NCBI GenBank assembly: GCA_041389045.1
Contig: JAWKSQ010000001.1
Span: 75,063-139,062 of the forward strand
Length of the DNA: 64,000 nt
Direction of reading: 5' to 3'
Origin: Minisyncoccota bacterium
GTDB taxonomy: Bacteria; Patescibacteriota; Minisyncoccia; Phycocordibacterales; UBA918
Below the pieces are notes generated by a model that saw only the letters and a list, made by a program, of their open reading frames with translations, searched no databases and had not been told where the DNA came from. The position numbers were made by a program, and so were the translations under genes. Numbering within the stretch: the first letter of the stretch is position 1; each line of letters starts with the position of its first letter. Shown here piece by piece: positions 3,907 through 57,636 of the stretch.

Positions 3907-3989
3907 TCATATAACCTAACATATAGGTTCGAATGTAACCAACTCAATTATGTACAATTCATTAAAGAAACATACAATGATTAATAATT

Positions 3990-10108: not shown

Positions 10109-10219
10109 AAGCCAGGCCAGGACTTTAAGCGACCCCAGGGTCGCTTTTACTTTATTTAAAGATTAATGATTTTAACAAAAATTAGCCAACCGCAAATAAC
10201 TGGCATACAATGTATAAGT

Positions 10220-23620: not shown

Positions 23621-23994
23621 CTGACCAATAATCGAATTTTTGTGATTATGTTCAGAATCTTTTTCGGTACGTTTTATAAGTAATTTTTTATGGACTCGCC
23701 GCTGTACTTCCACTACGGTATATCGGAAACAAAAAGAGCCACACAGGTGCAGCTCAAAATGCACTCTACCCAAAATCTTTTGGTATGCGTAAATTGTACT
23801 AGAACCCCAGGCAGGAGCAATTGACGAATTCACATATTCTACCCAGACTTTGACAAGGTCTGGCGAGGGTTACTTTCTAAGCCTACTTTAGACGTTGACA
23901 ACACTTAAATAGCACTTCCTAATTTAACAGTCTCGATATTTTTGATAGGAAGAGGATTTTACTCACCTTGGCATGTTATAGTATTTTACTTCTT

Positions 23995-25956
23995 ATGGAC
24001 CACGGACAAAAATATCTCGAAGGTTTAAACGCTGAACAAAAAAATGCCGTGCTAAAAACCGAGGGACCCCTCCTGATTCTCGCCGGGGCTGGTTCCGGAA
24101 AAACCCGTGTTATTACTCATAGAATCGTTCATTTAATACATACGGGCGTAGCCCCACACAATATATTAGCCGTCACCTTCACCAATAAAGCCGCGAAGGA
24201 GATGCGCGAACGAGTAGAAAGTCTCGTTCATAAATATCCGCCAAGTGAGCGGGCTGTCATTGACTCTCTGCCGGTAGTAACCACTTTTCACGCCCTGGGA
24301 GTTAGGCTACTACGGGAATTTCATGAGTATTTGGGGCTACCTAGACATTTCACTATCTATGATCGCAGTGACAGCCTGCGCGCTGTAAAACAGGCTTTGG
24401 AGCAAGCTAACTACAATCCAAAGGAATTTGAACCGAAGAAAATCCTCAGTAAAATTTCAAGGGCTAAGGGCGATGCTCTAAGCATGGCTTCATTTAAAGC
24501 CAGTGCGGATAGTTTTCCTGATCAAGTAGCGGCCACGGTTTGGGAAAAGTACGAAAGTATCCTTAAAGCAGAACATGCTCTAGACTTTGACGATCTGCTG
24601 GTAAAAACACTTCACCTTATTACGGCTAATCCACCCGTACGCGACATATTGCAAAATAGATACAAATACATCCATGTCGACGAGTACCAGGACACTAATG
24701 CCGTGCAGTTTTCAATTGCCAAAGCTCTCTGTAGTGAGAAGCAAAATCTTTGCGTAGTAGGGGACATTGATCAAAATATCTACTCTTGGCGCGGAGCAGA
24801 CATAAAGAACGTTTTACAATTTGAAAATCAATTTCCAACCGCTCACACCATTTTACTTGAAGAAAACTACCGCTCCACCAAAACCATCATCGCCGCTAGT
24901 AACGATATTATCGAAAAAAATAAAAACCGTATTCCCAAAGCAGTCTTTACCAGTAACGGTGAAGGGGAGAAAATTTCTCTTTACGCGGCCATGACAGGAA
25001 CTGATGAAGCCGAGTATATTGCTCTCACGGCGCAGTCATTAATTGAAGGTGGGCGAAGACCATCAGATATTGCCGTTTTATATCGAACTAACTTTCAATC
25101 ACGCGCGCTCGAAGAAGCCTTCCTGAACTTTGCTATTCCATACCAGTTGCTGGGCACTAAGTTTTATGAACGTAAGGAAATTAAAGATGTCCTTTCCTAT
25201 CTTAGACTGGCCATGAACCCTGGTAGTACCGCTGACTTAGTCCGTATTATCAACGAACCAGCTCGCGGTATTGGTAAAGTCACCATGCTTAAAGTCGTAG
25301 AAGGGAAGCGCAGTGAGCTCAAGGGAGCCACTTTAGAAAAAGTCAGTCGCTTTGACCAAATGATGAGTGACATCACTGACGAAGCAAAAACCAAGCCGCT
25401 ATCGGAAACCTTAAAATTTATTATCAAGCGAACCGGGATTGAAGTGGAACTTAAAAAAAGTGGTACTGAGGACGATTTATCACGCTTAGAAAACTTGCAA
25501 GAACTGGTGTCGCTAGCTAAAAGATACGACGAGCAAGATCCCGAGTCTGCTATCGAAACTTTGATAGAAACAGCAGCCCTCCAAAGTGACCAAGATGAAC
25601 TCAAAGAAAAAGAAGAACAAGACGCCGTCAGACTAATGACCATTCATGCTGCTAAAGGCCTGGAATTTCCTTGTGTCTTCATTAGTGGCTTAGAAGAAGG
25701 TCTCTTTCCACACGAAAGACTAGACGACACTGGGATTGACCATGAAGAAGAGCGTCGACTATTTTATGTCGCCCTCACTCGCGCTTCAGAAAAAGTATTT
25801 TTAACCTACGCGCATATGCGGACCATCTACGGTAGCCAAAGGATAAATGTTCCATCGTCTTTCTTAAATGATATTAAAACTGAACATATCGAATCGACCA
25901 ACCCTAAAGGTTTTGGTGGTGAGTCTGGCTACGAAGCAACCATCTTCCTTGATTAA
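23995..25956 (+). CDS. pcrA: ATP-dependent DNA helicase PcrA/UvrD family
   Basis: Walker A AGAGSGKTRV, VDEYQDTN and SF1 helicase motifs throughout. An ATG lies at 23995 inside the TTG-initiated ORF that starts at 23968. Confidence 0.9.
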   Translation: MDHGQKYLEGLNAEQKNAVLKTEGPLLILAGAGSGKTRVITHRIVHLIHTGVAPHNILAVTFTNKAAKEMRERVESLVHKYPPSERAVIDSLPVVTTFHALGVRLLREFHEYLGLPRHFTIYDRSDSLRAVKQALEQANYNPKEFEPKKILSKISRAKGDALSMASFKASADSFPDQVAATVWEKYESILKAEHALDFDDLLVKTLHLITANPPVRDILQNRYKYIHVDEYQDTNAVQFSIAKALCSEKQNLCVVGDIDQNIYSWRGADIKNVLQFENQFPTAHTILLEENYRSTKTIIAASNDIIEKNKNRIPKAVFTSNGEGEKISLYAAMTGTDEAEYIALTAQSLIEGGRRPSDIAVLYRTNFQSRALEEAFLNFAIPYQLLGTKFYERKEIKDVLSYLRLAMNPGSTADLVRIINEPARGIGKVTMLKVVEGKRSELKGATLEKVSRFDQMMSDITDEAKTKPLSETLKFIIKRTGIEVELKKSGTEDDLSRLENLQELVSLAKRYDEQDPESAIETLIETAALQSDQDELKEKEEQDAVRLMTIHAAKGLEFPCVFISGLEEGLFPHERLDDTGIDHEEERRLFYVALTRASEKVFLTYAHMRTIYGSQRINVPSSFLNDIKTEHIESTNPKGFGGESGYEATIFLD

Positions 25957-25983: not shown

Positions 25984-26841
25984 TTGTATGCTCGAAGGGT
26001 GAAACAAACTAAGGCCAGAGACCAAGAAAAACCAGATGCTTTCAAACATAAGAAATCACTCGGACAAAATTTCCTCACTAGCGATGTGGTGCCAAACTGG
26101 CTATGCGACTCAGCCGACCTTAAACGTGGTGAGACCGTCCTCGAGATTGGTCCTGGCACCGGTCGACTAACGAAAGTCCTTCTCGAAAGAGGGGTTCGAG
26201 TCATCGCTGTGGAAGCCGATGCCCGCGCTGTAGCTAGTTTGAAAAAGACTTTCGACCAAGCTCTAGCAAAAGGCAGTCTCACTATCCATCACGGTGATTC
26301 TAGAGAAATCACTCCCGAAACTCTTGGTCTAAGGGATAAAGAATTTAAGGTAGTAGCTAACATTCCTTATTATTTATCAGGAATTTTACTACGATCTTTA
26401 CTGGAATCAGCCATTCAACCCACGACTTTGGTCTTTTTAATGCAAAAGGAGCTAGTTCACCGGATAACTAGGGATAAAAAAGGGTCTTTACTGGCCCTTG
26501 GGGTAAGAGTTTTTGGTGAAGTGAGCTACGTTAAAACCGTAACCCGAGGTCACTTTGTACCAATGCCGAAGGTTGATTCAGCCATTTTAGCTGTTACCAA
26601 CATAAATCGTGATAATTTCATTGACTTGGATCCAGAATTTTTCTTTACCATTCTACACCTTGGACTTGGTAAAAAGCGTAAACAACTCCTATCTAACCTA
26701 ACCGAAAGTTGGCACCGTGAGGATTTAGAAAATATTTTTACCAACCTAGATCTACCTTTAACAGTCCGGGGAGAAGACCTACCACTAGAAACCTGGCTTA
26801 GCTTAGCTAATCAGCTAAAAGCCCTACCGCTTGAGGATTGA
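25984..26841 (+). CDS. rsmA: 16S rRNA (adenine1518/1519-N6)-dimethyltransferase
   Basis: 285-aa ORF with KKSLGQNFL, the SAM motif LEIGPGTGRLT and NIPYY. Confidence 0.9.
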   Translation: MYARRVKQTKARDQEKPDAFKHKKSLGQNFLTSDVVPNWLCDSADLKRGETVLEIGPGTGRLTKVLLERGVRVIAVEADARAVASLKKTFDQALAKGSLTIHHGDSREITPETLGLRDKEFKVVANIPYYLSGILLRSLLESAIQPTTLVFLMQKELVHRITRDKKGSLLALGVRVFGEVSYVKTVTRGHFVPMPKVDSAILAVTNINRDNFIDLDPEFFFTILHLGLGKKRKQLLSNLTESWHREDLENIFTNLDLPLTVRGEDLPLETWLSLANQLKALPLED

Positions 26842-26916
26842 TTTAGACTAAATGTCATACACAGGTATAGATAAAACTTCGTCATATATCTAGTTATTGA
26901 CTGCTATAATAAAACC

Positions 26917-27819
26917 ATGGATTACTCTCGTAACCCCAAAGTCATTGGTGCTTTTTTGGTTGGTTTTGCTATGGTGGCCGGAGCTTATTTAGCCAACAAC
27001 TTTGGCGAACCTAGAGTCGGATTACCTAGCGTACCCCTAGCAGTTGCTGACACAGCTCCAGCTAGAGTTTTCATCCCCACCAGCGACCAGAATGCCGACG
27101 GACTAGAAGATTGGCGCGATCAATTTATTTCGGCTCCAGCCGTTAACCTAGCAGAAGGGGATGTAGAGGAGGTCTACACGCCACCAACTACTCTGACTGG
27201 CCAACTTGGCGTCTCTATTATGGAGGGGCTTATTACCGTGAAGGGCGCTGGTTCCTTGGGCAAATCTGAAGAAATGGTAGTTAGTGACGCTATTAAACAA
27301 CTTGAAAGGGTAGCCACTGCTGACATTATTTATGATGTCCGCGATATTATTATCTCGGAAGATTATTCTGACGAAACTATTCGTAGCTACGGTAACGCCT
27401 TAGCCAACATTTTGATTACCGAAAGTGCACCAGACATGCGCAATGAACTAGTTATCCTACGTGACTATCTAGAAAGCGGTAAAGCGGAGGATCTGGCAGA
27501 CTTAAAGAAACTAGCTTCCGTCTACAAGAATTATCGTGATGCTACTTTAAATACCCCGGTACCAAAGATATTTGTGAAGGAACATCTCGACCTCATTAAT
27601 GTCTACAATGCCCTCTATACAGACTTAGACACTATGACCAAAGCCAGTGAAGACCCGATGCTTCCTTATGTTAGACTTAAGCGATATGAAGACGATGTTA
27701 ATGGCATGGCTTTGGCAATGACTAATATCTATGACGCCCTGGTACCTTACGCGAGAGTCTTTAGGATGAACGACTCAGTCATGATGTTTGCCAACCTCAA
27801 CGCCGTTTTAACTAATTAA
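26917..27819 (+). CDS. membrane-anchored protein, first gene of the T4SS-like operon; unknown function
   Basis: 300-aa ORF with an N-terminal TM (VIGAFLVGFAMVAGAYL). It is on the same strand as, and 7 nt from, the next gene. Confidence 0.4.
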   Translation: MDYSRNPKVIGAFLVGFAMVAGAYLANNFGEPRVGLPSVPLAVADTAPARVFIPTSDQNADGLEDWRDQFISAPAVNLAEGDVEEVYTPPTTLTGQLGVSIMEGLITVKGAGSLGKSEEMVVSDAIKQLERVATADIIYDVRDIIISEDYSDETIRSYGNALANILITESAPDMRNELVILRDYLESGKAEDLADLKKLASVYKNYRDATLNTPVPKIFVKEHLDLINVYNALYTDLDTMTKASEDPMLPYVRLKRYEDDVNGMALAMTNIYDALVPYARVFRMNDSVMMFANLNAVLTN

Positions 27820-27826
27820 CTAATAT

Positions 27827-29254
27827 ATGAACACTCTAAACAAAATCATTGAACGAGGACTCATCACCATCTTTGCTCTATGTTTTAGTTTTGTTAGTTT
27901 GTATATTCCAAATTATTTTAGTAAGCCAGAGGTAGTAGAAGCTGGTCTTGCTGGAGGTGGAGCTACTGAGGTTACCCAGATACTAAATAATATTGAACTT
28001 TTAGGAGTGAATGCTTGGACGTCTATTTCAGCCACTGCTGACACAATAACTTCAGCCATGACCTCAAACCAATGGATCAAGGATAACGTCTTAGACGGTA
28101 TTGGCTGGTCTTTGGCTAAAGGTATTCTCTCAACCATGACCTCCAGCATCGTCAACTGGATAAATTCCGGCTTTAAAGGCAGTCCAACTTTTGTGCAAGA
28201 CATCAGCAATTATTTACTTGAAGCGGGAGACAAAGCTATCGGCCAGTATCTAGAGCAACTAGGTGGACCGATGTCATTTATTTGTTCTCCCTTTAAACTC
28301 GACGTCCGCCTGGCGGTCGCTATCGAATACGACCAGGTACGAGACGTTAAAACCGCTCAGCCAGCTTCTACTTGTAGCCTAACTGGTGTCATGCGCAATC
28401 TAGAAGGTTTTGTAAACGGCACCGAAAACTTCGTTGATGCAGGCGGTTGGGACGCTTGGTTTAGAATCACCTCAAACCCAAGCACTTATACCCCTTATGG
28501 TTCTGTCCTAGCGGCTAAAGCTGGTGCTAATGCTCGTATTATTAATGCTCGCGGGGAAGAGATTAAGCTCCTGGACTTTGGTGACGGTTTTCTATCAAGT
28601 AAAATCTGCGAAACTGTCCACGGAGCTGGTACTAGTCGTGACAACTGCTTTGTTTCCACTCCTGGTAAAGTGATTAGTGAGGCTTTAACCTTCCAACTCT
28701 CAACCGGACCAAGAACCCTTATCGAAGCGGACGAAATCAACGAAATTGTTGGAGCGCTATTTGGTCAACTAACTAAACAAGTCATTACCGGAGCAGCCGG
28801 ACTACTTGGTCTTTCGGGTGGTACTGGTTACACCTACTCTGGGGTACCACTCACCACCCAAGTAGCGGCTTCTGGCTTTACTTCTGACCCATCGCAACTA
28901 AATACTCTGTTGACCGAAGCACGTAGTCGTGAAGTTGATCTTCGCTTACTCACTTTTGTCTACGCCCCACAGCTAGAAGATTACTCAGAAAATATTAGTA
29001 ATAATTCTGGCCGTCGCGCCTCAGCTGAAACCGCTCTAGATGAAATTACTACCCTCCAGACTACTACCCTAAATAACATCGCTACTCTGGACGGACTAAT
29101 TAGCAGATTTAACAACATTCCACCACCAGCTTCAGATGAAGAAAAGGGTGCTTTACTACAAGGGATTGCTAACGACTACTTTGCCCTAAGTAAACTACAC
29201 ACTAAAGCCGAGGTTGATAGCTACGAAAGATACTGGCAGGGATTACTGCGATAA
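27827..29254 (+). CDS. T4SS-locus protein, N-terminal TM, unknown function
   Basis: 475-aa ORF tightly packed in the operon. No motif is recognised. Confidence 0.4.
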   Translation: MNTLNKIIERGLITIFALCFSFVSLYIPNYFSKPEVVEAGLAGGGATEVTQILNNIELLGVNAWTSISATADTITSAMTSNQWIKDNVLDGIGWSLAKGILSTMTSSIVNWINSGFKGSPTFVQDISNYLLEAGDKAIGQYLEQLGGPMSFICSPFKLDVRLAVAIEYDQVRDVKTAQPASTCSLTGVMRNLEGFVNGTENFVDAGGWDAWFRITSNPSTYTPYGSVLAAKAGANARIINARGEEIKLLDFGDGFLSSKICETVHGAGTSRDNCFVSTPGKVISEALTFQLSTGPRTLIEADEINEIVGALFGQLTKQVITGAAGLLGLSGGTGYTYSGVPLTTQVAASGFTSDPSQLNTLLTEARSREVDLRLLTFVYAPQLEDYSENISNNSGRRASAETALDEITTLQTTTLNNIATLDGLISRFNNIPPPASDEEKGALLQGIANDYFALSKLHTKAEVDSYERYWQGLLR

Positions 29255-29257
29255 AAT

Positions 29258-31507
29258 ATGTTAGTTCACTCTGGTAAAAAACTCATGAAGGTTACAGCCA
29301 TAACAGCGCTGATGCTCTGTGCCTTGGTGTTTCTGTTCTTTCCAGAAATTAGTAACGCTCAATTAGGAGCGGTTGGTTCCGCAGTTGGTTCCGGTATAGA
29401 GTGGTTACTTTGGACCTTCGTCAATGTCTTTTTTGGTTGGATGGTTTGGGTAGGTGGGGAACTACTAAATGTCGGAGTAAATACTTATGTAATTGGCTTT
29501 GGAGCACAATACGAAAGTACCGGACTTGGTTTTGCTATCGATAGCCTCTGGGTGGTCATACGAGACATTTTTAACCTAACCTTTATCTTTGGGCTAGTCC
29601 TCATTGGACTCAAGATGATCTTCAATGCCGACGATGCTGGAAATAAACGCATGCTAGTGTCACTTATTATGGCCGCTCTTCTGGTGAACTTCAGTCTGTT
29701 TATCACCAAGTTTGTCGTTGATTTCTCAAATATCGCTGCTTACCAATTAGTTGACGCTTTTCCAAAAGTCGGTGGGAAAGCTGACATTTCAGGCAGTTTT
29801 ATGGAGCTTATGGGTCTTACTGGAGCCTTTAACTGGGGTACTTCTGTAGGTGTAGAATTCTCAAAAACGACTGGCTTTACTGGTCTTGGCTATATATTTG
29901 GTACGTTATTACTTTTCCTAATTTCGGCTTTTGTCTTCTTAGGCGGAGGTTTGCTATTAATTATTCGTTTTGCTGTACTCAACCTCTATATGGTACTTTC
30001 CCCGCTGATGTTTCTGGGTTGGGTTTTCCTGCCGCCGCTAGTGTCACATCTGACTACTGGAAAGGTTTTTAAGCCGAGCTTTCTTTGCCCCAGCTTATAT
30101 TTTGATGCTTTACCTCGCCCATACCATTTTGACATCATTTAACTCTACTGGAGCTGCCCGTAAATCCATAAGTTCTATGTTCACTCCCCAGTCTGCCTCT
30201 TCCTTTGAAGCAGTTATTCCACCTTTTATTCTTACCTCAATTTTCCTAATTGCTGCCATCGTCATTGCCCAGAAAATGAGTAGTAATGGCGGAAGCGCTC
30301 TTATAGCGGCTCAAAACGCCATGATGAGTAAGGTTAAAAATGGCGTTACTAATACTTCCAGAAAGATTGCTACCACCAGCGGACGAGCTGCTTCATACTT
30401 TCCGAGACAAGCTGCCAGAACTGGTATAAATAGGGCTGGTAACAGGCTCCTTAAGGGATTTGATAATGTGCAAGCCAAAACTAGATCCAAAGCTTCTGAA
30501 ACAGGGGCTGGTTACTTTACTAAAAAAGCAGCTGGATTTATGTCATTGAATTCGGTAGATCGGGTAGCCGTGGCACCACAAAAGCTCTTAAAGAAACCCA
30601 GCTTGGTACTGGCATGACATATGATACTGAAGCGGCTTACAAAAGTAAGACTGCTGCCAATACTAGAGGTCGAGCTAATGTTATGGAAATGAGTGAACTT
30701 AACGAGCTTAAAGCCCTAACCGACAAACGTAATCTTGGACCACTTAATGCTGATGACTCAGCTCGCTTAGAAAAATTAGAAGAAAGGAGATCTTATCTAG
30801 AAGGAAAAGCAAATGAACTCGTAGCTTCTGTGACAGATTTAAGTACTAAACAAATGGAAGATATGACGGACGAGATGCTTGAGTCTATCGCCGAAAACCT
30901 CACCAACTCTCAGGTCGAGAACTTCATGAAGAGCGATAATGTCAGTGCTGAAACAAAAGGTAAACTTATTAAAGCTCGTCAAGCTGCCATTACAAAGGTT
31001 GTTGGAGCGACAGGTTCTATTATTACAGCGGAACTGGCAAAACGCACGATTGACGAAATTGAAACCATGGGTGACGTGTGGATCCGTGATAATGTACACC
31101 TCTTTACTAAGCCACAGATGGACGAACTAAAGAAGAGTAAGAAGTTTACTGAGGTACAACGAAATTCTTATGCTCAAACACGAAATGATAGACATAAAGA
31201 TGCAGCAGTAGCTAATACTCGCGCTTCTCTTACTGAACTCTTTACTCTTAGAAATAGCGACGGTTCTCGAAAACCGAGAAAGCCCGAAGATATCGCCAAT
31301 TTAGGCAGAGATGTACTTATGAAAGATGCTGCTATCACTATGTTATCGGCTGCGGACTTAGAAGTTATTGCTGACAAAAAGACATTGACTCCAACTGAAC
31401 GAAAGGAAATCTATGAAAAGGTCATGGATGTTACTTACACAGGTGCCAACGCTACGGCACTAAGAGAATACTTCCGTTCACCACAAGGATCACGAAATTG
31501 GGGTTAA
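29258..31507 (+). CDS. VirB6/TrbL-like polytopic membrane protein with long hydrophilic C-terminal tail (frame-disrupted)
   Basis: ORFs 29258-30142, 30102-30617 and 30614-31507 are involved. It has a signal peptide and at least 6 TM helices. The protein sequence continues sensibly (..GWVFPAAASVTSDYWKGFLSRAFFAPAYILMLY..) if 1 nt is added in T-runs 30024-30027 and 30066-30070. The third junction is an ATGA overlap and may be genuine. Confidence 0.5.
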
Positions 31508-31520
31508 GAAAAATTAATTT

Positions 31521-31970
31521 ATGGAAATAACTGACACAGAAAGAGATAGTCGTTACGAAAACGCTACACCAACCCAAAAACAGCTTTACTCTAGCTCCGA
31601 AGCTGGAGCTAGCTTGTCTGCCATAGCTCAAAAATATGACTTATCCAGTGCTGATATCTATAGAAAATTCGCTATTACCGTTGGTGACTTTATTTTAGGT
31701 TTTTATCGATCGGAAGATTTCGCACTAGTCTTGGAACAAAACGTTGGTCTAAGTACTCAAATGTCAGCCCTGGTAGCCGTAGATGTTAAAGAATTCCTTT
31801 CTCCACTTATTACCGCAACCACTGACAATGTCCCATTACCCAATTCAGTAACTAGTGGAATAGCGCAACCACAACAAGAAAATGTTTACACCAGTACTCA
31901 AGCAGCAATCTTGACCGAAAAGCCGACTGGCAACTTCTCTGCGGGAGCAAAGTGGGAGAGTGAAAATTAA
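31521..31970 (+). CDS. hypothetical protein (T4SS-like operon)
   Basis: 149-aa ORF in the operon with no recognisable family. Confidence 0.4.
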   Translation: MEITDTERDSRYENATPTQKQLYSSSEAGASLSAIAQKYDLSSADIYRKFAITVGDFILGFYRSEDFALVLEQNVGLSTQMSALVAVDVKEFLSPLITATTDNVPLPNSVTSGIAQPQQENVYTSTQAAILTEKPTGNFSAGAKWESEN

Positions 31971-32019
31971 TCCTGTGTGGATAGTCACCACACTCTAAGC
32001 CACCAAGTTTAACTGGGGC

Positions 32020-32448
32020 GTGTATAATACTTATATGCGTTTTGAAGTCCCACAGTTCATTGAGATTGAGGATAAAATATTTGGCCCGCTGACTTGGCGA
32101 CAATTTCTTTATGTTGGGGGAGGGGTGGGCATGGGCGTAGTACTCTTTATTACCACCCCGTTTATTGTATTTCTCTTGATTGGTTTACCACTTTCTTTGC
32201 TAGCTGGTGCCCTGGCTTTTTATCCGGTTAACAATCGTCCTTTTTCTTTCTTCCTCGAGGCGATTGTAAATTACTTGCGGGGGACCAAACTTTATCTTTG
32301 GAAAAGAAAAGACGCCCCCGTTCACAAGCACAGCTTTGCCCCTAGCCAGAGTGGCCTCTCTGACTTAACTCCGACCGCCCCCAAACGAGTCACTACCACC
32401 TCGCTCGCTCGCCGACTTGAACTAGAAGCCCTTCAAAAAAAAGAATAA
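32020..32448 (+). CDS. PrgI-like small membrane protein
   Basis: MRFEVPQFIEIEDKIFGPLTWRQFLYVGGG followed by two TM helices matches the PrgI-family N-terminus found in Gram-positive-type T4SS loci (from recall). The likely start is the Met at 32035. Confidence 0.6.
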   Translation: MYNTYMRFEVPQFIEIEDKIFGPLTWRQFLYVGGGVGMGVVLFITTPFIVFLLIGLPLSLLAGALAFYPVNNRPFSFFLEAIVNYLRGTKLYLWKRKDAPVHKHSFAPSQSGLSDLTPTAPKRVTTTSLARRLELEALQKKE

Positions 32449-32449
32449 T

Positions 32450-33088
32450 ATGCCAAAAGTTACCGCTGCTACACAAGATTTCGTTACACTTAAAGACATC
32501 AAAGATGGGGTGGTTTTGCTTAAGAGCGGACAAATGTGTTCGGTCCTCCTAGCTTCTTCTATCAACTTCGCTCTTAAGTCATACGACGAACAACAAGCCA
32601 TCCTGCACCAGTTCCAAACCTTTCTAAACTCACTAGATTTTTCTTTGCAAGTTTATGTCCAATCAAGGAGACTAAATATTGAACCATACCTTGAAGTACT
32701 GGAGACCAGAGTGGAATCACAAGACAATGACCTTATGCGCATTCAGCTCCGCGAATACATTGAGTACATTAGACGTTTTACGACCGAAAACGCGGTCATG
32801 AGTAAAAACTTCTTTGTTGTCATTCCTTACTCGCCAGCTCCGATCAATCTCACTAAAGGGATTACTTCAATGTTTTCTGGTCGCCAAGTACAAAGTAATC
32901 TCTCGACCGAAAAACAATTCGAAGAACACCGAACTCAACTAGAACAGAGAGTGGCGCTAGTTGAAAGCGGATTAAACGGGGTAGGGGTAAGAACGGTCCC
33001 ATTACAAAATGATGACCTGGTAGAATTGTTTTATCATATTTATAATCCCACTGATCCAACCGGTGCACCACCAACCTTAAATAATTAG
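32450..33088 (+). CDS. VirB4 N-terminal-domain-like protein (separate ORF)
   Basis: 212-aa ORF. DIKDGVVLLKSGQMCSVLLASSINFALKSYDEQQAILHQFQTFLNSLDF resembles the N-terminal domain of Gram-positive VirB4 ATPases such as Tn916 Orf16 (from recall). Confidence 0.5.
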   Translation: MPKVTAATQDFVTLKDIKDGVVLLKSGQMCSVLLASSINFALKSYDEQQAILHQFQTFLNSLDFSLQVYVQSRRLNIEPYLEVLETRVESQDNDLMRIQLREYIEYIRRFTTENAVMSKNFFVVIPYSPAPINLTKGITSMFSGRQVQSNLSTEKQFEEHRTQLEQRVALVESGLNGVGVRTVPLQNDDLVELFYHIYNPTDPTGAPPTLNN

Positions 33089-33089
33089 T

Positions 33090-34880
33090 ATGGGCTTTCT
33101 CGATTTCTTACAACCACCAGAAAAAAAAGACACCAACATCAGTGATCAACTGATGACTTTGGTCGACGTTGTAGCACCAGCTGCTGTTAACATCGCTCCG
33201 CGAAATCTAAACCTAAGTGGCCTGAGCGCCCGTGTACTATACGTAGTAGCCTACCCTCGTTACCTAACTGAAGGTTGGCTCGAACCAGTTCTTAATATAG
33301 AACAAGAGCTTGACGTAGCCATTTATATTCACCCCATCGACACAGCTGACACTCTAAAAAAGTTCCAGAAAAAAGTGGCTGAGGTGCAAAGCCAAATCAG
33401 TGTGAAAGCCGAGCGGGGCGAAGTCCGTGACCCACAACTAGAGGCGGCCTATCGTAACCTTGAAGACCTGCGTGACAAACTCATGCAAGCTGAAGAAAAG
33501 CTTTTTAACGTTGGTCTTTACTTAACCATTTATGGCAAGAATGAAGCCGAACTAGACAAAGCCGAAAACACCATCAAGGGCATGCTCGACGCTAAGCAGA
33601 TCTATCTTAAGCCAGCCCTCTTCCAACAGGAACCGGGCATAAAAAGTATTTTTCCCACCGCTTCCGATGAACTTTTGGTACACAATAAATTTAATTCTGA
33701 ACCGCTCTCTAGCTTCTTTCCCTTCACTTCTTTCGACCTCACTTCAGACACCGGTATTCTCTACGGTCTGAATCGTCACAATTCCTCATTGGTACTTTTT
33801 GATCGATTCTCTCTTACCAACTACAACTCAGTTACTTTTGCTACCTCTGGCGCCGGGAAGTCATACGCTCTGAAGCTTGAAATTTTGCGTTCACTGATGT
33901 TCGGTACGGAAGTGATTGTCCTTGACCCAGAACGAGAATACGAATATTTAGCCGAAGCTACTGGCGGACGATTCTTCAACATTTCACTTTCTTCTGACCA
34001 CCACATCAATCCTTTTGACCTCCCGGCTCCCCAAGCAGACGAAAACCCACGAGACGTACTTCGGTCTCATATCATTGAGCTAATCGGACTCTTTAGATTG
34101 ATGCTTGGTGGCCTGACTCCAGAGGAAGATACTATTCTCGACTTAGCCATTCAGGAAACCTACGCCCTTAAAGACATTACTGGTGACGCAGATTTTACTA
34201 ACCAAGAACCGCCCCTCTTAAGTGACTTCGAAATGGTCTTGGCTGGGATGGATGGTAGTAGCTCACTCATTACTAGACTACAGAAGTATACTTCTGGAAC
34301 TTGGTCTGGTTTTATGAATAAAGCTACCAATGTCGACATCAACCAAAAGTTCGTCGTATTTTCACTACGCGATATGGAAGACGAACTGAAGACCATCGCG
34401 ATGTATATCATCACCAACTTCATCTGGAGCGCGGTGCGTAGACGCCTAACTAAGCGACTTTTAGTGATTGACGAAGCCTGGTGGATGATGAAATCTGAAG
34501 ATACTGCTTCTTTCTTATTTAGTATGGCCAAACGGGGACGTAAGTACTACCTTGGTATCGCCACCATTACTCAGGACGTGGACGATTTCCTCCGCTCACC
34601 TTACGGCGTACCAATGATCACCAACTCATCCATCCAGTTCTTGATGAAACAATCGCCGACCGCTATCGACAACATTCAAAAAACTTTCAACCTGACTGAC
34701 GAAGAGAAGTTTCTCTTACTAGAGTCTGGAGTAGGGCAGGGTATATTCTTCGTTGGTCTTAAACATGTAGCCATTAGGGTTATCGCTTCTTACACCGAAG
34801 ACCAAATCATCACTTCCGACCCATCTCAACTTTTACAAATCCAGCGCTCGAGAGAAGAGCTTAGAGCCGCCAGAGCGTAG
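33090..34880 (+). CDS. VirB4/TrbE-type T4SS ATPase
   Basis: 596-aa ORF with Walker A TSGAGKSYALK and Walker B LLVIDEAWWMM. It has the typical YPRYLTEGWL segment and a C-terminal QGIFFVG. Confidence 0.85.
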   Translation: MGFLDFLQPPEKKDTNISDQLMTLVDVVAPAAVNIAPRNLNLSGLSARVLYVVAYPRYLTEGWLEPVLNIEQELDVAIYIHPIDTADTLKKFQKKVAEVQSQISVKAERGEVRDPQLEAAYRNLEDLRDKLMQAEEKLFNVGLYLTIYGKNEAELDKAENTIKGMLDAKQIYLKPALFQQEPGIKSIFPTASDELLVHNKFNSEPLSSFFPFTSFDLTSDTGILYGLNRHNSSLVLFDRFSLTNYNSVTFATSGAGKSYALKLEILRSLMFGTEVIVLDPEREYEYLAEATGGRFFNISLSSDHHINPFDLPAPQADENPRDVLRSHIIELIGLFRLMLGGLTPEEDTILDLAIQETYALKDITGDADFTNQEPPLLSDFEMVLAGMDGSSSLITRLQKYTSGTWSGFMNKATNVDINQKFVVFSLRDMEDELKTIAMYIITNFIWSAVRRRLTKRLLVIDEAWWMMKSEDTASFLFSMAKRGRKYYLGIATITQDVDDFLRSPYGVPMITNSSIQFLMKQSPTAIDNIQKTFNLTDEEKFLLLESGVGQGIFFVGLKHVAIRVIASYTEDQIITSDPSQLLQIQRSREELRAARA

Positions 34881-34897
34881 TATACTTGGGTATACCT

Positions 34898-35743
34898 ATG
34901 GCCCTACCGCAAAGAAAAAACGAACCTCAAGTTAACCAACCTAACCCTGGCCAAGTTAGGAGTGTCAAAAAGGTTTTTGGTTATGGCGGAGAAAATCTCG
35001 GGACTGGACGAACTGCCAGTAATGACGACTCACATTACTCATCACTACGTCCAACTGTAGACAGTACTTTCGCCGAGTCTGGCTATGGCCGCTCCGACAT
35101 GATGATGCAACCGACCGGACTTGGGGGACAAACAAAAGAAAAAAAGGGGGCTAATCAACCAGAAGAAGAACGAATCTCTGAAGAAGAGGAGACTAGGGCT
35201 TTTCACCGCCAAAACACTAGACGTATCCTTGGTAAACAAAAGCTTCCCACCTCATTATCGAGCGCAAAAAACCTAGTGGCCAAAACTCGAGTCACCACCA
35301 TAAATTCGGCAGCTGTTTCTTGGCAAGGACCGCTGTGGCTGACTTTCCAAGTGCCAATGGCAATTTTTAATATTATTACTTTGGCTATGTTCGGGGTAGT
35401 TGATTCTTTAGCAACCGATAATAACAACCCTTTCACATGGGCTGTTGGTAAACTGACCAGTGCGGCTAACAGCCTTGTCAGTATGGCAGGATTTAGTTTG
35501 GCTGATTTTGCTACCGGTATATTCTTCATAACAACTATCGCCATTTTAGCCTTTGGTATTGCTTCCATTTTCTTTCTTTACCTGCAATACACCATGGCTG
35601 GTTTAAAACCTTTATCTGGCACCCATGCTGGACTAAAACTGGGAATGTTACTTTTAGTCATTCTTGGTTACAGCATTCCGATAGCTAACATGCTTCCTTT
35701 CGTTTTTCTTTGGATGGCTGTAGTTTGGTTTTACCCTAAATAA
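34898..35743 (+). CDS. membrane protein with disordered N-terminus (T4SS-like operon)
   Basis: The ATG at 34898 lies within the ORF that starts at 34886. The hydrophilic N-terminal half is followed by about 4 TM helices. Confidence 0.45.
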   Translation: MALPQRKNEPQVNQPNPGQVRSVKKVFGYGGENLGTGRTASNDDSHYSSLRPTVDSTFAESGYGRSDMMMQPTGLGGQTKEKKGANQPEEERISEEEETRAFHRQNTRRILGKQKLPTSLSSAKNLVAKTRVTTINSAAVSWQGPLWLTFQVPMAIFNIITLAMFGVVDSLATDNNNPFTWAVGKLTSAANSLVSMAGFSLADFATGIFFITTIAILAFGIASIFFLYLQYTMAGLKPLSGTHAGLKLGMLLLVILGYSIPIANMLPFVFLWMAVVWFYPK

Positions 35744-35797
35744 GTCAGTGAATAGCCCTAAATTCACTGAAAATATTTGTTACTATATAGCTATAGT

Positions 35798-36757
35798 ATG
35801 AAATATCTCTTATTACTTTCGCTCTTGCTTTTAGTGCCTGGCGGGACATCCCTAGCCCAAACTGGACTTAGCGTTGGTGGAGAGTCTTTATCGATCGTTC
35901 TGGATCCACTCTTTCCAACCCCTGAAAGCAAGTTCACCGCTACCGCCGATGATTACGCCCTACCTTCTCAAGGGAACTCTATTCGCTGGTATGTTGATGG
36001 AAAGTTACTTACTGAGTCTGCCAATAAGCGTGAGATTACTCTCACCGCTAAAAAAGTTGGTGTCCCCACTACTATTGAGTTAGTAGTGGGTTTAAACGGT
36101 GGTGCTAGCGCGAGTGTTAAAAAAGTAGTTAATCCAGCCTATCTCGACCTCATTATTGAACCGCAAACCAGAATCCCTTCCTTCTATAAAGGACGAGCCT
36201 TGCCGAGTGTTGGTAGCTTAACTAACGTGACCGCCATTATTAATGCCGGTGAAGTTACCCCAGCCAACCTCATGTATAACTGGCGCCTAAATGGTAAGGC
36301 TCTAGAAAATGGCTCAGTCCGAGGCCGGAACAACATCACCTTTGCAATGCCTCAAGGCCCATACGCCACCCTTAGTCTAGAAGTTACCACTCTAAGTGGG
36401 GAAGTGATTGCCAGACGGATTTTTGATATTCAGAGTCTTACTCCGACTTTGTCTTTTTATGAGATGAGTACCCTTTATGGCTTGCGAGAAAAATCAGTCG
36501 GTGGTGGTTTGTCTCTAATTGGTAATAGTGTGACCGTCAAAGCCGAACCATATTATTTAGACTTGCGCACCTACAACTATCCCGACCTAACGGAGTGGCG
36601 CATTAATGGCCTTTTGAATGACAATAACAGCAATAATCCCTATGAAATAACCTTAGCTAATGGAGGTGGAGGAGGAATTGGTAGTGCTGACTTCCACGTA
36701 CGCGACACCACCCAACTATTACAAGGCGCCCGGGCTAACTTTCAAATAAACTTTTAA
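35798..36757 (+). CDS. secreted protein, unknown function (T4SS-like operon)
   Basis: Signal peptide MKYLLLLSLLLLVPGGTSLAQ from the ATG at 35798. The sequence is beta-rich. Confidence 0.45.
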   Translation: MKYLLLLSLLLLVPGGTSLAQTGLSVGGESLSIVLDPLFPTPESKFTATADDYALPSQGNSIRWYVDGKLLTESANKREITLTAKKVGVPTTIELVVGLNGGASASVKKVVNPAYLDLIIEPQTRIPSFYKGRALPSVGSLTNVTAIINAGEVTPANLMYNWRLNGKALENGSVRGRNNITFAMPQGPYATLSLEVTTLSGEVIARRIFDIQSLTPTLSFYEMSTLYGLREKSVGGGLSLIGNSVTVKAEPYYLDLRTYNYPDLTEWRINGLLNDNNSNNPYEITLANGGGGGIGSADFHVRDTTQLLQGARANFQINF

Positions 36758-36760
36758 AGT

Positions 36761-37944
36761 ATGAAACAAAAAACCCTTATCATCATCGGTGTCGTCATTG
36801 TTTTCATACTTTTGTTTGCTTGGATTTATTTACTATTCTTCGGTACCCCACAAGATCCCAAACAAGTTTTTAGTGATTTAGGCTTTGGTGGGGAAGAAGA
36901 AACTGGTATCGTGATTCCTCCACCGATTGAAGAACCCTTACCAGAGACTCCGGCCGAAAGACCGAAACTGAGACAACTAACGACCAGACCCGTTGTAGGC
37001 TTTGTCGAAGTACAAGCCACCACCACTGATCCGGTCACGGTCTACTACGCCGAAGCTGGTACCGGACACATTTATGAAGTAGACCCTTTATCTGGTAATG
37101 AAAAACGTATTTCCAATACCACTATCGCTGAAGCTAGTTACGCTACTTTTTCACCTCTAGGCGACTACGTAGCCGTCCGCAGTGGACATGATCGCAGAGC
37201 CAATTCTATTACCCTTGGCACACTTAATAAAACTGATGGTAGTCTCGACACTGAACCCTAAGTGAAAGAATCGAAGATTTGAAAATAGTAAACGATACCC
37301 AGTTACTTTTCACCACGAGAGAAACATCTGGTCTAACTGGCTATGTCTACAATCTCAAGACCAAGGCTAAGTCCAATATCTTTACTCTACCTTTTTACGA
37401 GGCCAACATAGGCTGGGGAGACAGTAGTACTAGTACGCATACAGCTTATCCAAAACCAACCTATGCTCTGGAAGGATTTTTATATGAAATAAAAAGCGGA
37501 AAAATGAAACGACTACCACTGGAAGGTTTCGGCTTTTCAGCTACGGCTAATGCAGACATGGTGCTCTACAACAAGATTTCGGGGGATAGTACTGTTAGCT
37601 ATGTCTATGAACGGGCACAAGATGAAAGTCGAGCACTGGACGCCGTCGTTGTGCCAGAGAAATGTCACTTACCCAAAACTGGACTCCAGTTTGTTTGTGG
37701 CTTTGAAGCGACCGTCATCCCTTACGAATTCCCGGACACCTGGTATCGTGGCAATATGAGCTTTAAAGACTCTATTTGGCTTCTCGACGTCGATAGCATG
37801 ACGGGAGAAGATGTAGTTAATACCTTTACCGAAAGTGGCCGCGAAATAGATATGACAAATTTAAATTACTATCCTGACCATACCAGCAATTCACTTTACT
37901 TTACAAACAAAAACGATAATACTCTTTGGTTATATGAATTCTAA
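36761..37944 (+). CDS. membrane-anchored beta-propeller-like (TolB/PD40-like) protein, frame-disrupted once
   Basis: ORFs 36761-37261 and 37279-37944 join as ..SLDTEP-LSERIEDLKIVNDTQ.. if one C is added to the C-run 37256-37258. The N-terminal TM and segments such as GTGHIYEVDPLSGNEKRIS suggest PD40-like repeats. Confidence 0.45.
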
Positions 37945-38747
37945 ATCCACATTCCTGTTTACCTTAGTCGTTACGTTTCTGTTACCGACAGCTTTAGTAC
38001 TGGCCGCCACCCCAGTCAAAACCCTTGTCGGTATTCCTGGTATTACTGATACTGATCTGAGCTTTGGTAATTACATCAATGCCCTGTATGGCCTCTCCAT
38101 TAGTATTGCGGCCTTGCTCGCTGTCATCAAGATTATTATTGCTGGCATGAAGTACATGCTGTCTGACATCGTCACCAGTAAAGCTGACGCTATTAAAGAT
38201 ATTCGGGGCGCTTTACTCGGTTTACTTATCGTCATCTCCGCTGTTTTGGTGCTAAACATTATTAACCCTCAACTAACCCAAACGAATGTTTTCCAGGATA
38301 TTAAAAAGATAAATGCTACCCCTAGTTCGCTAGTAGGAAGTGGCAATGTAAGTGGAGGCCCGTTACCAACCCAATCAACTCCTTTAGCTGGTATCCCAGG
38401 AGCTGGTGAAAAAATTATTTGTAGTAACGCTACTTGTCAAACAGAAATGAGAGCTTGCAAAGATAGGGGGAAAGGTAGATCAACCTCCTCTTCGTGTAGC
38501 TGGTAAAACTGACACCTTCAACTGTCTTTACGGAGAAGTAGTTTCCAAGCCAACATGCGTAAAGATGGGCCGCTAATGTATCTGAATTCGGAGGCGAAAC
38601 AACGTACGATAATGTAGATTGTTCCAAAACAGTGCAAAATGTCCTGCTGGTACAACCTATTATCCTCCAGCCGCTGGAGAGCTCGTGGCACAGTGTTACA
38701 AGGCCTTTCCCAAACCTTCTACGAGTCAAAGCACAACGGCTCAGTAA
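37934..38747 (+). CDS. T4SS pilin-like (VirB2/TrbC-type) protein with Cys-rich C-terminal extension, frame-disrupted
   Basis: It has a signal peptide plus two hydrophobic helices flanking IIIAGMKYMLSD...AIKDIRGALLGLLIV. After the annotated stop at 38506 the reading frame can be followed through three shifts (G-run 38466-38470, ggcc 38568-38571, A-run 38636-38639). It reaches a TAA at 38745-38747, directly in front of a strong terminator. Confidence 0.5.
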
Positions 38748-38786
38748 AATAGAACCCCAAGACGTTAGTCTTGGGGTTCTATTTTT
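38748..38786 (+). terminator. rho-independent terminator ending the T4SS-like operon
   Basis: aatagaaccccaagac-gtta-gtcttggggttctattttt. Confidence 0.8.
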
Positions 38787-38829: not shown

Positions 38830-39558
38830 CTACCTATGCTTTCTGACATAAAACTCTTGACCAATCGCTACTAAGTTACTAACAAAGAAGTAGAGGGCGA
38901 TAGCGGCGGAAATGGCATAAGCAGCGAAGACAATGATAATCGGCATGACGTAACGCATCTGGAGTTGCATATTACGCATAAAGTCATCCTTCAGTGACGG
39001 CTCTGCACCCTCTACTTTAGGTGGTAGCGCCGGCATGGAAAGCTTTATTTGATAGAACTGAGTTACACCCGCCAAGAGAGCTAAAATCATACTCTTACCG
39101 GTAATATCGATGATTCCTAAGAAGTTCATCGTCACAGTAACTGGACTAGCAATAAACGAGTATAGTATCTCTGTATTAATTTCAGGTAGAGCAATTCCAC
39201 CACCACTATAGACTGAAAAATATAGGGCGATAATAATCGGAATCTGTAAAAAGAGTAGGAAGATACTAGCAAAAGGATTCATGCCCGCCTCTTTATAAAT
39301 AACCATCATCTGTCTAGCTTGTTCTTCGCGATTGTCTTTATACTTCTCCTTAAGTTCCTTGAGCTTAGGCTCAATTTCACGCATGACTTTTTGTGTCTTA
39401 GCGGCCTTGATCGACAGCGGTAAGAGAATCATCTTAACTAAAATCACCGTAGCAATAATCGCCAACCCTACGTCACCACCAGGAATTACATCAATAAAAA
39501 AAACGAGCCCATTATAAACTGGGTCAAAGAAAAACGTGTGCCAAATATAACTAAACAT
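38830..39558 (-). CDS. yidC: YidC/Oxa1-family membrane protein insertase
   Basis: 242-aa polytopic ORF in the conserved rpmH-rnpA-yidC position. It has the PLSIKAAKTQKVMREIEPKLKELKEKY segment. Confidence 0.85.
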   Translation of the reverse strand: MFSYIWHTFFFDPVYNGLVFFIDVIPGGDVGLAIIATVILVKMILLPLSIKAAKTQKVMREIEPKLKELKEKYKDNREEQARQMMVIYKEAGMNPFASIFLLFLQIPIIIALYFSVYSGGGIALPEINTEILYSFIASPVTVTMNFLGIIDITGKSMILALLAGVTQFYQIKLSMPALPPKVEGAEPSLKDDFMRNMQLQMRYVMPIIIVFAAYAISAAIALYFFVSNLVAIGQEFYVRKHR

Positions 39559-39569: not shown

Positions 39570-39902
39570 CTACCTTTTATTTAGGGCTCGTCCAATCTCA
39601 GTAGCAACCTGGGACACGAACTCCGCCCTGGTCAGTTTACTAATAGCTGGTTTGGTGACTACTATGAGCGCCACTTTTGGATCTAAATCCAACCTCATCT
39701 TTCTAAGTAAAGCATAAATACGTCTCCGGATGCGATTACGTTCATGGGCGAGCTTAGCCACTTTTTTCGGAACTACCACAGACGAAGTAAAAGTCGGGGC
39801 AGGGGACAAAATAACGGTTGTATAAACACCATGGATTCGCCTACCACTAGCAAAAACCCTAGAAAACTGGGCTCTATCTAGCCGTTCTTTCTTAGGTAGC
39901 AT
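39570..39902 (-). CDS. rnpA: ribonuclease P protein component
   Basis: 110-aa basic ORF with the RNR motif region AHERNRIRRRI. Synteny with rpmH supports the call. Confidence 0.9.
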   Translation of the reverse strand: MLPKKERLDRAQFSRVFASGRRIHGVYTTVILSPAPTFTSSVVVPKKVAKLAHERNRIRRRIYALLRKMRLDLDPKVALIVVTKPAISKLTRAEFVSQVATEIGRALNKR

Positions 39903-40172: not shown

Positions 40173-40192
40173 TTATACACAGTTTATACACA
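40173..40192. promoter_or_regulatory. two tandem DnaA-box-like 9-mers (TTATACACA x2, 11-bp phasing)
   Basis: TTATACACA occurs at 40173-40181 and 40184-40192, matching the TTATCCACA consensus at 8 of 9 positions. The boxes lie in the rpmH-dnaA intergenic region. Confidence 0.5.
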
Positions 40193-47829: not shown

Positions 47830-48366
47830 TTAGACATCATCGGCGGTGGTAAATATTTCTTGTACGTCAGACTGTTCTTCGATAGCTTCGATTAAAGTTG
47901 CCAAAGCCTCTCCGTCCTGGTCTCCAAGTTCTACAGCGGAATTAGGAATATAGACCCCGTCTTTCTTACTAAAAGCCCAACTTGCGGAACCGGGTGTACC
48001 AAGTTGATAACCAAGCTTACTAAAGGTGTGTTTAATTTCCTGGCTAGTTCGATTATTGTTATCTGTCACGGCCGTAATAAGCATGGCTACTCCACCTGGT
48101 CCATAAGCTTCAAACAAAACTTCCTGCAAAGCTACTCCATCAGCCCCGGCTCCCTTGGCTACAGCGCGTTCGATGTTGTCCTTGGGCATTGAGTCTTTCT
48201 TAGCGCGTTCAATGGCAGCTACTAAACCAGGGGAAGATGTGTCCCCGCCAGCTTTCTTAGATTCCATAGTAATAAGCAAAGAGTGTTTGGAGAAAATTTT
48301 ACTTCGTTCCGCATCAGTAGCGGCTTTTTTGTGTTTTATTTTTGACCACTTGTTATGTCCTGACAT
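47830..48366 (-). CDS. yebC: YebC/PmpR family protein (short form)
   Basis: MSGHNKWSKIKHKKAA... and YEAYGPGGVA match YebC. At 178 aa it is about 60 aa shorter than the canonical protein. Confidence 0.8.
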   Translation of the reverse strand: MSGHNKWSKIKHKKAATDAERSKIFSKHSLLITMESKKAGGDTSSPGLVAAIERAKKDSMPKDNIERAVAKGAGADGVALQEVLFEAYGPGGVAMLITAVTDNNNRTSQEIKHTFSKLGYQLGTPGSASWAFSKKDGVYIPNSAVELGDQDGEALATLIEAIEEQSDVQEIFTTADDV

Positions 48367-51531: not shown

Positions 51532-51589
51532 ATAAAATATTGTATCATGTACGAACTGCGCGTGGTGTTCTATAGTACTGTGTGAAAAT

Positions 51590-57570: not shown

Positions 57571-57636
57571 AGCCTGAAATCTCAGCAGTAGATGGTAGAG
57601 GGACAATTAATATAAAACCCCCTCCATACCATCTAT

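Follow-up and report, generated by a model that had tools for sequence, protein, structure and literature searches.

We analyzed a stretch of 64,000 nucleotides (nt) from a metagenome-assembled genome (MAG) of Candidatus Paceibacterota (Paceibacteria; Parcubacteria), called the window in the following and used for the numbering of all positions. In it lies a plus-strand gene array which very probably represents, in its Paceibacteria form, the chromosomal and vertically inherited type IV secretion system (T4SS) of Patescibacteria, as judged from gene content, sequence similarity and synteny. The array extends from an ATG at position 26917 to a hairpin terminator, and 14 mechanically called open reading frames (ORFs) lie on the plus strand between 26917 and 38506, with intergenic gaps of 1-49 nt and one overlap. 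In intact relatives the number of genes is 11 (g01 to g11). An earlier annotation made without database searches (the sequence-only reading) had described twelve same-strand genes with gaps of 1-49 nt; strand and spacing hold, the count does not. The loci of relatives are labelled L001, L004, L006, L007, L014, L015 and L082. The closest of them, L082 (VirB4 identity 94%), has all 11 genes unbroken, with products from g01 to g11 of 299, 475, 747, 170, 142, 211, 597, 284, 319, 392 and 247 amino acids. The coordinates of all genes and of the flanking features are collected in Table 1.

The central component is g07, a VirB4-type ATPase of the short form. It matches P-loop_TraG with 91 bits and PDB entry 4ag5 with E 1.7e-38, and it scores 348.6 bits against the NCBIfam profile conju_CD1110, above the curated cutoff of 325, covering profile positions 179-732 of 752. 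A Walker A motif (ATSGAGKS, 33840-33863) and a Walker B motif (LLVIDE, 34458-34475) were located. The stop codon of g06 lies 1 nt upstream of g07. Its product matches the NCBIfam profiles VirB4_plasma (Mbov_0397; positions 103-244, E 6.9e-10), conju_CD1110 (positions 11-117, E 1.1e-6) and, with 27 bits at a cutoff of 200, the TrsD/TraD family (E 3.5e-6). As both proteins together span positions 11-117 and 179-732 of the 752 positions of the conju_CD1110 profile, g06 and g07 are, by profile coverage, the two parts of a split VirB4. In the CD1110-family proteins themselves, which belong to conjugative elements of Clostridia and Bacilli, both parts are united in one polypeptide of about 750-800 amino acids, unlike g06/g07. 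The split is not an artefact of this sequence, because the best 120 VirB4 homologues are all short (575-618 amino acids, identity 82-94%) and g06 is a distinct ORF of 206-289 amino acids in 77 loci.

For the comparison between genomes up to 57 loci whose downstream flank measured at least 9 kb were used, and 49 loci for g01, g02, g03, g05 and g06; occurrence was determined by tblastn. g06 and the PrgI/VirB3-like g05, with 39.7 bits against PF12666 (gathering score 27), were both found in 49 out of 49 loci. g03 was detected in 48 out of 49. Its orthologues are single ORFs of 676-805 amino acids in L001, L004, L006, L014, L015 and L082, with 5-7 transmembrane (TM) segments and, behind these, a hydrophilic tail about 350 residues long. 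PF04610 (TrbL) matches 5 out of 18 of these orthologues (best E 2e-8), and L082 gives a weak TrbL_3 match. The copy in the window yields no VirB6-family match in Pfam because it is frameshifted. The pilin g11 was detected in 51 out of 57 loci; PF18895 matches 20 out of 22 orthologues (best E 4.7e-10) and TrbC 4 out of 22. The tails of the g11 orthologues extend for a median of 141 amino acids past the pilin core, and their number of cysteines is even in 42 out of 44 orthologues and at least four in 29 out of 44. If g11 packs like VirB2/TraA, this extracytoplasmic tail would coat the exterior of the filament.

These results bear out what the sequence-only reading had named, i.e. a VirB4 ATPase with Walker A and B motifs, a separate ORF resembling the VirB4 N-terminal part (now placed in the known TrsD family), a PrgI-like protein, a VirB6/TrbL-like protein with a long tail, a VirB2/TrbC-like pilin, and a membrane-anchored β-propeller (g10, see below). 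The components were thus recognized correctly; it went unnoticed that VirB6, the propeller and the pilin tail are broken in their frames.

Three genes of the array are affected. g03 is distributed over the ORFs 29258-30142, 30102-30617 and 30614-31507 by about three single-base deletions, two of them in T runs near 30024 and 30066 and one at about 30600, after which the original frame is regained. g10 consists of the ORFs 36761-37261 and 37279-37944 owing to a 1-base deletion near 37257-37260. The mechanical ORF of g11 stops at 38506; the tail (38440-38747) shifts frame approximately three times, and the true stop is the TAA at 38745-38747. With at least seven frame disruptions across g03, g10 and g11, one could argue that the system is decaying in this genome and that VirB6, propeller and pilin are true pseudogenes. 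We consider this very improbable. Single-base deletions of the same kind occur outside the array: dnaA has lost one base at about 41582 (AGGGGAAG here versus AGGTGGAAG in relatives), inside the conserved GRDHTTV DNA-binding motif, which leaves 442 amino acids instead of the 462 in relatives, while the next frame from 41582 reads GRDHTTVIHSCEKIK and matches L001 and L004. A gene of the CCA-adding enzyme/poly(A) polymerase family (3950-5462, plus strand) is spread over three frames by about three such deletions. The indels are therefore not specific to the T4SS genes. The deletions in g03, g10 and dnaA, the sites inspected closely, sit at short homopolymer runs, and the frames are otherwise open and conserved. 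Since the same kind of indel breaks the essential dnaA and the CCA enzyme, and since none of the 11 genes is broken in L082, indel errors of the assembly, and not decay, are the most likely cause of the frameshifts in g03, g10 and g11. The source, a 416-kb MAG contig (NCBI locus tags include R3B53_00610 and R3B53_00655), would fit a long-read assembly.

Two further genes of the window look disrupted and may represent further indel artefacts. YebC/TACO1 (47830-48366, minus strand) appears truncated at 178 amino acids, its second domain matching profile positions 2-56 of 160 only, and the gene of a PilB-type T2SSE ATPase (515 amino acids) has an overlapping ORF of 107 amino acids upstream in another frame, both lying within 49802-51627 on the minus strand.

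Table 1. Genes, regulatory elements and flanking features of the T4SS locus in the 64-kb window
Feature	Position	Strand	Basis or remark
Candidate extended -10 promoter, TGCTATAAT	26902..26910	+	Read from the sequence; ends 6 nt before the first ATG
g01, no family	26917..27819	+	300 amino acids; one N-terminal TM anchor, residues 9-27
g02, TM-anchored extracytoplasmic protein, no family	27827..29254	+	475 amino acids; conserved Cys, WINSGFxGSP motif
g03, extended VirB6/TrbL-like polytopic protein	29258..31507	+	Orthologue matches; about 750 amino acids in relatives, window copy split in 3 ORFs
g04, soluble protein, no family	31521..31970	+	149 amino acids; no TM segment; fast-evolving
g05, PrgI/VirB3-like membrane protein	32020..32448	+	PF12666 PrgI
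g06, TrsD-like, detached VirB4 N-terminal part	32450..33088	+	NCBIfam matches
g07, VirB4-type ATPase, short form	33090..34880	+	596 amino acids; profile and PDB matches, Walker motifs
g08, no family	34886..35743	+	285 amino acids; disordered N-part, 4-5 C-terminal TM segments
Inverted repeat, 9 bp	35745..35770	.	Within the 33 nt that separate g08 from g09; kept in L082
g09, secreted, three tandem immunoglobulin (Ig)-like β-sandwich domains	35777..36757	+	NCBI start 35798, 319 amino acids
g10, TM-anchored TolB-like β-propeller	36761..37944	+	392-401 amino acids and single ORF in close relatives; window copy in 2 ORFs
g11, VirB2/TrbC-like pilin	37934..38747	+	Signal peptide, two TM helices, variable Cys-rich C-terminal tail
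Intrinsic terminator	38751..38786	.	13-bp GC-rich perfect stem, then T run; A and T runs on both sides
uvrD/pcrA	23968-25956		Flank, upstream
rsmA/ksgA	25984-26841		Flank, upstream
yidC	38830-39558	-	Downstream, convergent
rnpA	39570-39902	-	Downstream
dnaA	40308-41636		Downstream
dnaN	41998-43095		Downstream

The remaining six proteins are specific to the lineage; g01, g02, g08, g09 and g10 are membrane-anchored or secreted, and g04 is soluble. None of g01, g02, g04, g08 and g09 has a Pfam match reaching the gathering score, g09 showing only a weak and short BiPBP_C match below it, and for g01, g02, g04 and g08 no significant NCBIfam match was obtained. Profile searches against the PDB gave matches at chance level only for g01, g02, g03, g06 and g08. 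Orthologues of g01 were found in 28 out of 49 loci, and relatives carry a gene of 168-305 amino acids at the position of g04. g02 occurs in 44 out of 49 loci and has 623 homologues, every one of them unnamed or hypothetical. Its AlphaFold2 (AF2) model, computed from an alignment of 55 sequences, is poor (predicted local distance difference test, pLDDT, 61), with a helical bundle at the C-terminus as the only exception, and Foldseek returned nothing from the PDB with an E value below 0.39. A match of g02 to TrbJ (VirB5) in NCBIfam comprises 31 residues with E 0.0024 and was rejected as chance. We also considered g08 as a relative of the pilin or of VirB6; hhalign against both profiles gave no relationship.

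For two of the lineage-specific proteins a fold can be given. g09 has a signal-like N-terminus, was detected in 55 out of 57 loci and was modelled by AF2 with a pLDDT of 88.7 and a predicted template-modelling score of 0.73. As Foldseek returns only generic matches to multi-domain Ig/FN3 proteins of the adhesin type (TM-scores 0.2-0.3), no specific function can be read from this fold. The profile of g10 orthologues matches the TolB propellers of the PDB with E 7e-4 to 2e-3, and g10 was detected in 54 out of 57 loci. Taken over the class, g02, g03, g05, g06, g07, g09, g10 and g11 form the eight conserved subunits, and g01, g04 and g08 are the three fast-evolving ones.

The limits of the operon can be set on both sides. 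A candidate extended -10 element marks the putative start of the operon, and the motif ACTGCTATAAT or ACTGCTATACT is kept 6-7 nt 5' of the g01 ATG in L082, L004, L006 and L007. As the -10 element sits only six nt before the ATG, this spacing suggests that g01 is leaderless. At the other end the one strong terminator claimed by the sequence-only reading was found again: the hairpin folds with a free energy of -30.2 kcal/mol (z = -8.3 versus shuffled sequences). It is not listed by a simple terminator scan and was confirmed by reading and folding the sequence. Because runs of A and T flank it on both sides, the terminator is probably bidirectional and would also serve the convergent yidC. A further hint towards regulation arises from the inverted repeat between g08 and g09, in which L082 carries an A-to-G change that preserves pairing. 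It may form an internal RNA stem-loop, a candidate processing or attenuation site between the genes of the membrane machinery and those of the exported subunits.

A search with VirB4 against representative genomes gave at least 575 loci. Without exception they belong to Patescibacteria MAGs of the Paceibacteria/Parcubacteria type, among them Kaiser-, Nomura-, Campbell-, Taylor- and Adlerbacteria. Synteny of the block uvrD-rsmA-[operon]-yidC-rnpA-dnaA-dnaN extends over dozens of Paceibacteria MAGs; dnaA follows virB4 at a distance of 3.6-8.2 kb in 55 out of the 57 loci, and the orientation is identical in 52 out of 52. g07 is 67-94% identical to its Paceibacteria homologues. Median identities across the Paceibacteria loci are 71% for VirB4, 59% for DnaA, 50% for YidC and 40% for DnaN. 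Because VirB4 exceeds the other three, it behaves by these identities as a core gene under strong purifying selection and not as part of a mobile element.

The families found here (VirB4, TrsD, PrgI, VirB6) are typical of Gram-positive conjugative elements, and a tyrosine recombinase gene is present at 14693-15628, so that an integrated conjugative element (ICE) or its remnant, located near the origin by chance, has to be weighed. We regard it as extremely improbable. A recently integrated mobile element is excluded by the flanking block being syntenic across dozens of Paceibacteria MAGs; the housekeeping flanks and their orientation are identical in divergent genomes, VirB4 is better conserved than DnaA, and the GC content of the operon equals that of its flanks, with no shift in composition. 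The recombinase lies 11 kb away, has the domain layout of XerC/D, and is separated from the operon by genes for PNPase, a Mg-chelatase-like ATPase and UvrD. Neither a relaxase nor a coupling protein was seen nearby among the scanned ORFs.

The last point was examined with Pfam on the sizeable ORFs of the 64-kb window, and no relaxase, VirD4/TcpA or VirB11 family was present among them. The matches in the window comprise PNPase, a Mg-chelatase-like ATPase, PBP1, Pol I, RuvABC/YebC, TyrRS, carboxypeptidases, a XerC/D-type recombinase, a PilB-type ATPase and methyltransferases. The PilB-type T2SSE ATPase (49802-51349) is encoded on the other strand, 11 kb from the operon, and from its size (515 amino acids) and location it would be related to type IV pili. 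The sequence-only reading had stated that relaxase, VirD4 and VirB11 are missing. This holds for the scanned ORFs, and the lack of a coupling protein is valid for the 64-kb window only: because VirD4-like genes are reported from other places in most Patescibacteria genomes (PMC12102498), the genome may well contain one although the window does not.

With respect to the replication origin, dnaA and dnaN lie 1.5 kb downstream of the operon and the cumulative GC skew is lowest at about 40-42 kb, in keeping with an origin at dnaA and with the position next to the origin that had been proposed from the sequence. Two TTATACACA sites, 11 nt apart (40173-40192) in the intergenic region between rpmH/rnpA and dnaA, are candidate DnaA boxes; the number of near-consensus boxes in the window as a whole is at chance level, and only this pair stands out. 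Over the 22 kb on the left side of dnaA (16150-38506) nearly all genes, the T4SS operon included, are on the plus strand. If oriC is located at dnaA, the operon would be transcribed toward the origin and head-on to replication, which sits oddly with a simple gene-dosage rationale; the skew signal of the window is not clean.

The closest VirB4 proteins outside the candidate phyla radiation (CPR) among plasmid matches are those of monoderms (Actinomycetota and Bacillota, 27-36% identity). Judged by identity and profile scores, on which we also base the clade membership of VirB4, the lineage derives from monoderm conjugation machinery of the mating-pair formation type MPF-FATA, and the link to relaxase-driven DNA transfer has been lost. 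This is in agreement with the survey by Quinonero-Coronel et al (2025), in which VirB4 was found in 2,417 out of 3,035 genomes as a monophyletic clade nested in MPF-FATA. According to the survey's account of gene neighbourhoods, the component most often associated is TrsD, PrgI/VirB3, VirB6 and VirB2-like pilins occur nearby, relaxases are rare, and the Paceibacteria cluster lies near dnaA, dnaN, rnpA and ksgA (PMC12102498); a review from 2025 repeats these points (PMC12857230). For Southlakia epibionticum, Wang et al (2023) reported from transposon sequencing that the T4SS (SEML1_0006-0019) is essential for epibiotic growth, and their description is that of a system resembling Gram-positive conjugative ones, with pilins and without a recognizable type IV coupling protein (T4CP) or relaxase (PMC10633639).

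The system in the window shares with the published Patescibacteria T4SS a VirB4 with a separate TrsD-like gene, PrgI/VirB3, VirB6, and one or more VirB2-like pilins, no relaxase or T4CP in the vicinity, and a chromosomal location beside dnaA/dnaN/rnpA/ksgA. Comparison with other CPR loci, which the sequence-only reading had proposed as a check, therefore returned the same repertoire and the same dnaA context. The parallel it had drawn to CPR and Saccharibacteria stands for CPR; the organism itself belongs to the Paceibacteria and not to the Saccharibacteria. Differences exist as well: there is one pilin gene with a long Cys-rich tail here, whereas Saccharimonadia have an array of several pilins, and no peptidase or lysozyme gene follows directly after virB4. 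The accessory set of g01, g02, g04, g08, the Ig-domain protein g09 and the TolB-like g10 is not among the components described in the T4SS passages of PMC10633639 and PMC12102498.

Outside Patescibacteria, the MPF-FATA systems of pGO1, pSK41 and pIP501 (TrsC-TrsD-TrsE or TraC-TraD-TraE) show the same order of VirB3-like, TrsD-like and VirB4 genes, and there too TrsD is encoded by a small gene of its own and is related to the N-terminus of VirB4. Systems of this type are plasmid-borne, possess relaxase, T4CP, a VirB1-type hydrolase and VirB8-like proteins, and have no pilin. A closer arrangement was found on the megaplasmid of Pontibacillus sp. ALD_SL1 (NZ_CP062975, 351.8-361.4 kb; locus L081). 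A pilin-like protein of the Mbov_0395 family and a second small protein are followed there by proteins of 779 and 116 amino acids, a TrsD-like protein of 274 amino acids (31% identical to g06) and a short VirB4 of 621 amino acids (33.5% identical to g07), i.e. by the same order as here of pilin, VirB6-size protein, small membrane protein (VirB3), TrsD-like protein and short VirB4. Within 9 kb the annotation contains no relaxase or T4CP, and typing classifies the replicon as non-mobilizable. The cluster differs in a giant M23 peptidoglycan endopeptidase after virB4 and in its location beside flagellar genes and not at oriC; homologues of g01, g02, g08, g09 and g10 were not detected in it. Because of this megaplasmid the combination of split VirB4 and pilin is not confined to CPR, and the cluster may be the counterpart of the CPR system in a free-living monoderm. 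Mycoplasma, likewise a wall-less/monoderm lineage, also pairs VirB4 with a pilin-like protein: g11 resembles Mbov_0395 (E 6.9e-6), and Mbov_0397 is matched by g06, as given above, and by g07 (E 2.7e-77). All of these scores are under the equivalog cutoffs, and the Mycoplasma genes sit in mobile ICEs.

We propose that the locus is best explained as a whole by a Patescibacteria T4SS which is derived from MPF-FATA, has been uncoupled from relaxase-driven transfer and serves exchange with a host, and hold this to be probable. The sequence-only reading had arrived at a minimal T4SS of the Gram-positive type, used for something other than ordinary conjugation in an epibiotic bacterium with a small genome; profiles, the kinship of VirB4 to monoderm proteins, synteny and the published analyses agree with it. 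With regard to mechanism, a combined pilus and translocon has in our view about an even chance. The VirB4 hexamer would dock on VirB3 and VirB6, together with TrsD, at the cytoplasmic membrane, pull the pilin from the membrane by means of ATP and polymerize it into a short pilus or conduit, with the disulphide-rich tail of the pilin facing outward. The translocon of VirB3, VirB6 and VirB4 (with TrsD) could also move substrates, and g09 (Ig), g10 (TolB-like), g01, g02 and g08 might form the section that spans the envelope and makes contact with the host. Such a machine would thereby provide contact-dependent exchange with the host cell, either protein export or uptake of host macromolecules, and not conjugation.

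A more specific version concerns the Paceibacteria set of g02, the three-Ig g09, the TolB-like g10, the 4-TM g08 and the pilin with its variable, disulphide-rich C-terminal domain. This set could represent an envelope and pilus module without a described counterpart in other T4SSs, in which each subunit of a monoderm pilus displays an adhesin-like tail that latches onto the host and draws material from it. We put this forward tentatively and consider it doubtful.

While one must keep in mind the agreement with published systems, several points weigh against our interpretation. The data on essentiality come from Saccharimonadia, another class, and no function has been demonstrated for any Paceibacteria T4SS; a perspective from 2024 calls the function “completely unknown” (PMC11665869). 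The pilin domain in the window scores under both the Pfam cutoff (21.5 bits versus a gathering score of 26.6 for PF18895) and the NCBIfam cutoff (25.7 bits versus 40 for the Mbov_0395 pilin-like family). A VirB1-like or VirB8-like gene was not recognized inside the operon with Pfam, NCBIfam and PDB profiles. For this reason, and as five subunits are without family, the envelope-spanning architecture is a guess. A distant T4CP could conceivably give the system a role in DNA transfer, in view of the VirD4-like genes reported from other places in most genomes of Patescibacteria.

The missing VirB1-like wall hydrolase could be a protein with two to three LysM domains and a Peptidase_M23 domain, encoded 3 kb upstream of the operon (22601-23833, minus strand), divergent from uvrD and found at the same place in L082. 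The survey mentions VirB1 candidates containing M23/LysM and, separately, an association of VirB1 homologues with VirB4 mainly in Paceibacteria (PMC12102498).

The direction of transport, and not the identity of the locus, is what a further alternative concerns, namely a system for uptake of DNA or nucleotides which imports host DNA for a cell unable to make nucleotides, comparable to ComB of Helicobacter pylori or the archaeal Ced system. ComB is likewise a chromosomal T4SS without relaxase or T4CP and has VirB2-, VirB3-, VirB4- and VirB6-like parts. It takes up DNA and does not conjugate, possesses a diderm architecture (VirB7-B10) and works with ComEC. No sequence kinship to it closer than the shared VirB4 family was seen. 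A weak local match of g07 to CedB in NCBIfam (E 6.7e-11, about 80 residues) might favor uptake, but it is confined to the shared P-loop region and reaches 41 bits versus a cutoff of 700. The operon contains no gene for DNA binding or DNA processing. Two reviews name uptake as a candidate role (PMC11665869, PMC12857230), and the latter records that comEC is dispensable in Southlakia, which does not show that the T4SS imports DNA. We thus hold an uptake system to be improbable and retain host exchange by an MPF-FATA-derived T4SS as the preferred explanation.

We further report three side observations from the remainder of the window. An island of higher GC content (56800-60100; 0.487 at 58-60 kb) contains, side by side, two genes for N6_N4 DNA methyltransferases (57637-58911 and 58871-59686), together with a helix-turn-helix transposase-like fragment (59613-60053). 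The island is probably what is left of a restriction-modification system or a mobile element. A PF14350 “Beta protein” gene (377 amino acids), located directly downstream of a Peptidase_M78/IrrE-like gene (418 amino acids) at 61324-63716 on the minus strand, looks like part of a putative defence or regulatory module formed by this pair. Two tandem paralogues of Peptidase_M14 (zinc carboxypeptidase) are encoded at 10166-12063 (plus strand), followed on the opposite strand by a polytopic DUF2339 membrane protein of 833 amino acids (12121-14622).

As a kind, the finding is already known: the monoderm-type T4SS, the separate TrsD, the pilins, the lack of a relaxase and the position at dnaA were published between 2023 and 2025 (PMC10633639, PMC12102498). 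The window adds no new principle and represents a clean Paceibacteria example with defined operon boundaries. Small additions are the secreted g09 with its three Ig domains, the disulphide-rich pilin tail and the relaxase-less cluster on the Pontibacillus megaplasmid. The list of conserved and fast-evolving subunits points to unknown proteins that are worth structural or genetic work. In enrichment cultures of Paceibacterales, T4SS pilins were reported to be among the unknown genes with the highest expression (PMC10936435). Patescibacteria depend on host cells and may account for a quarter of bacterial diversity. Nearly all of them have this conserved cluster on the chromosome next to dnaA, and no T4SS before theirs had been reported as essential to its own carrier. 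The system is probably central to the host-dependent life of Patescibacteria.

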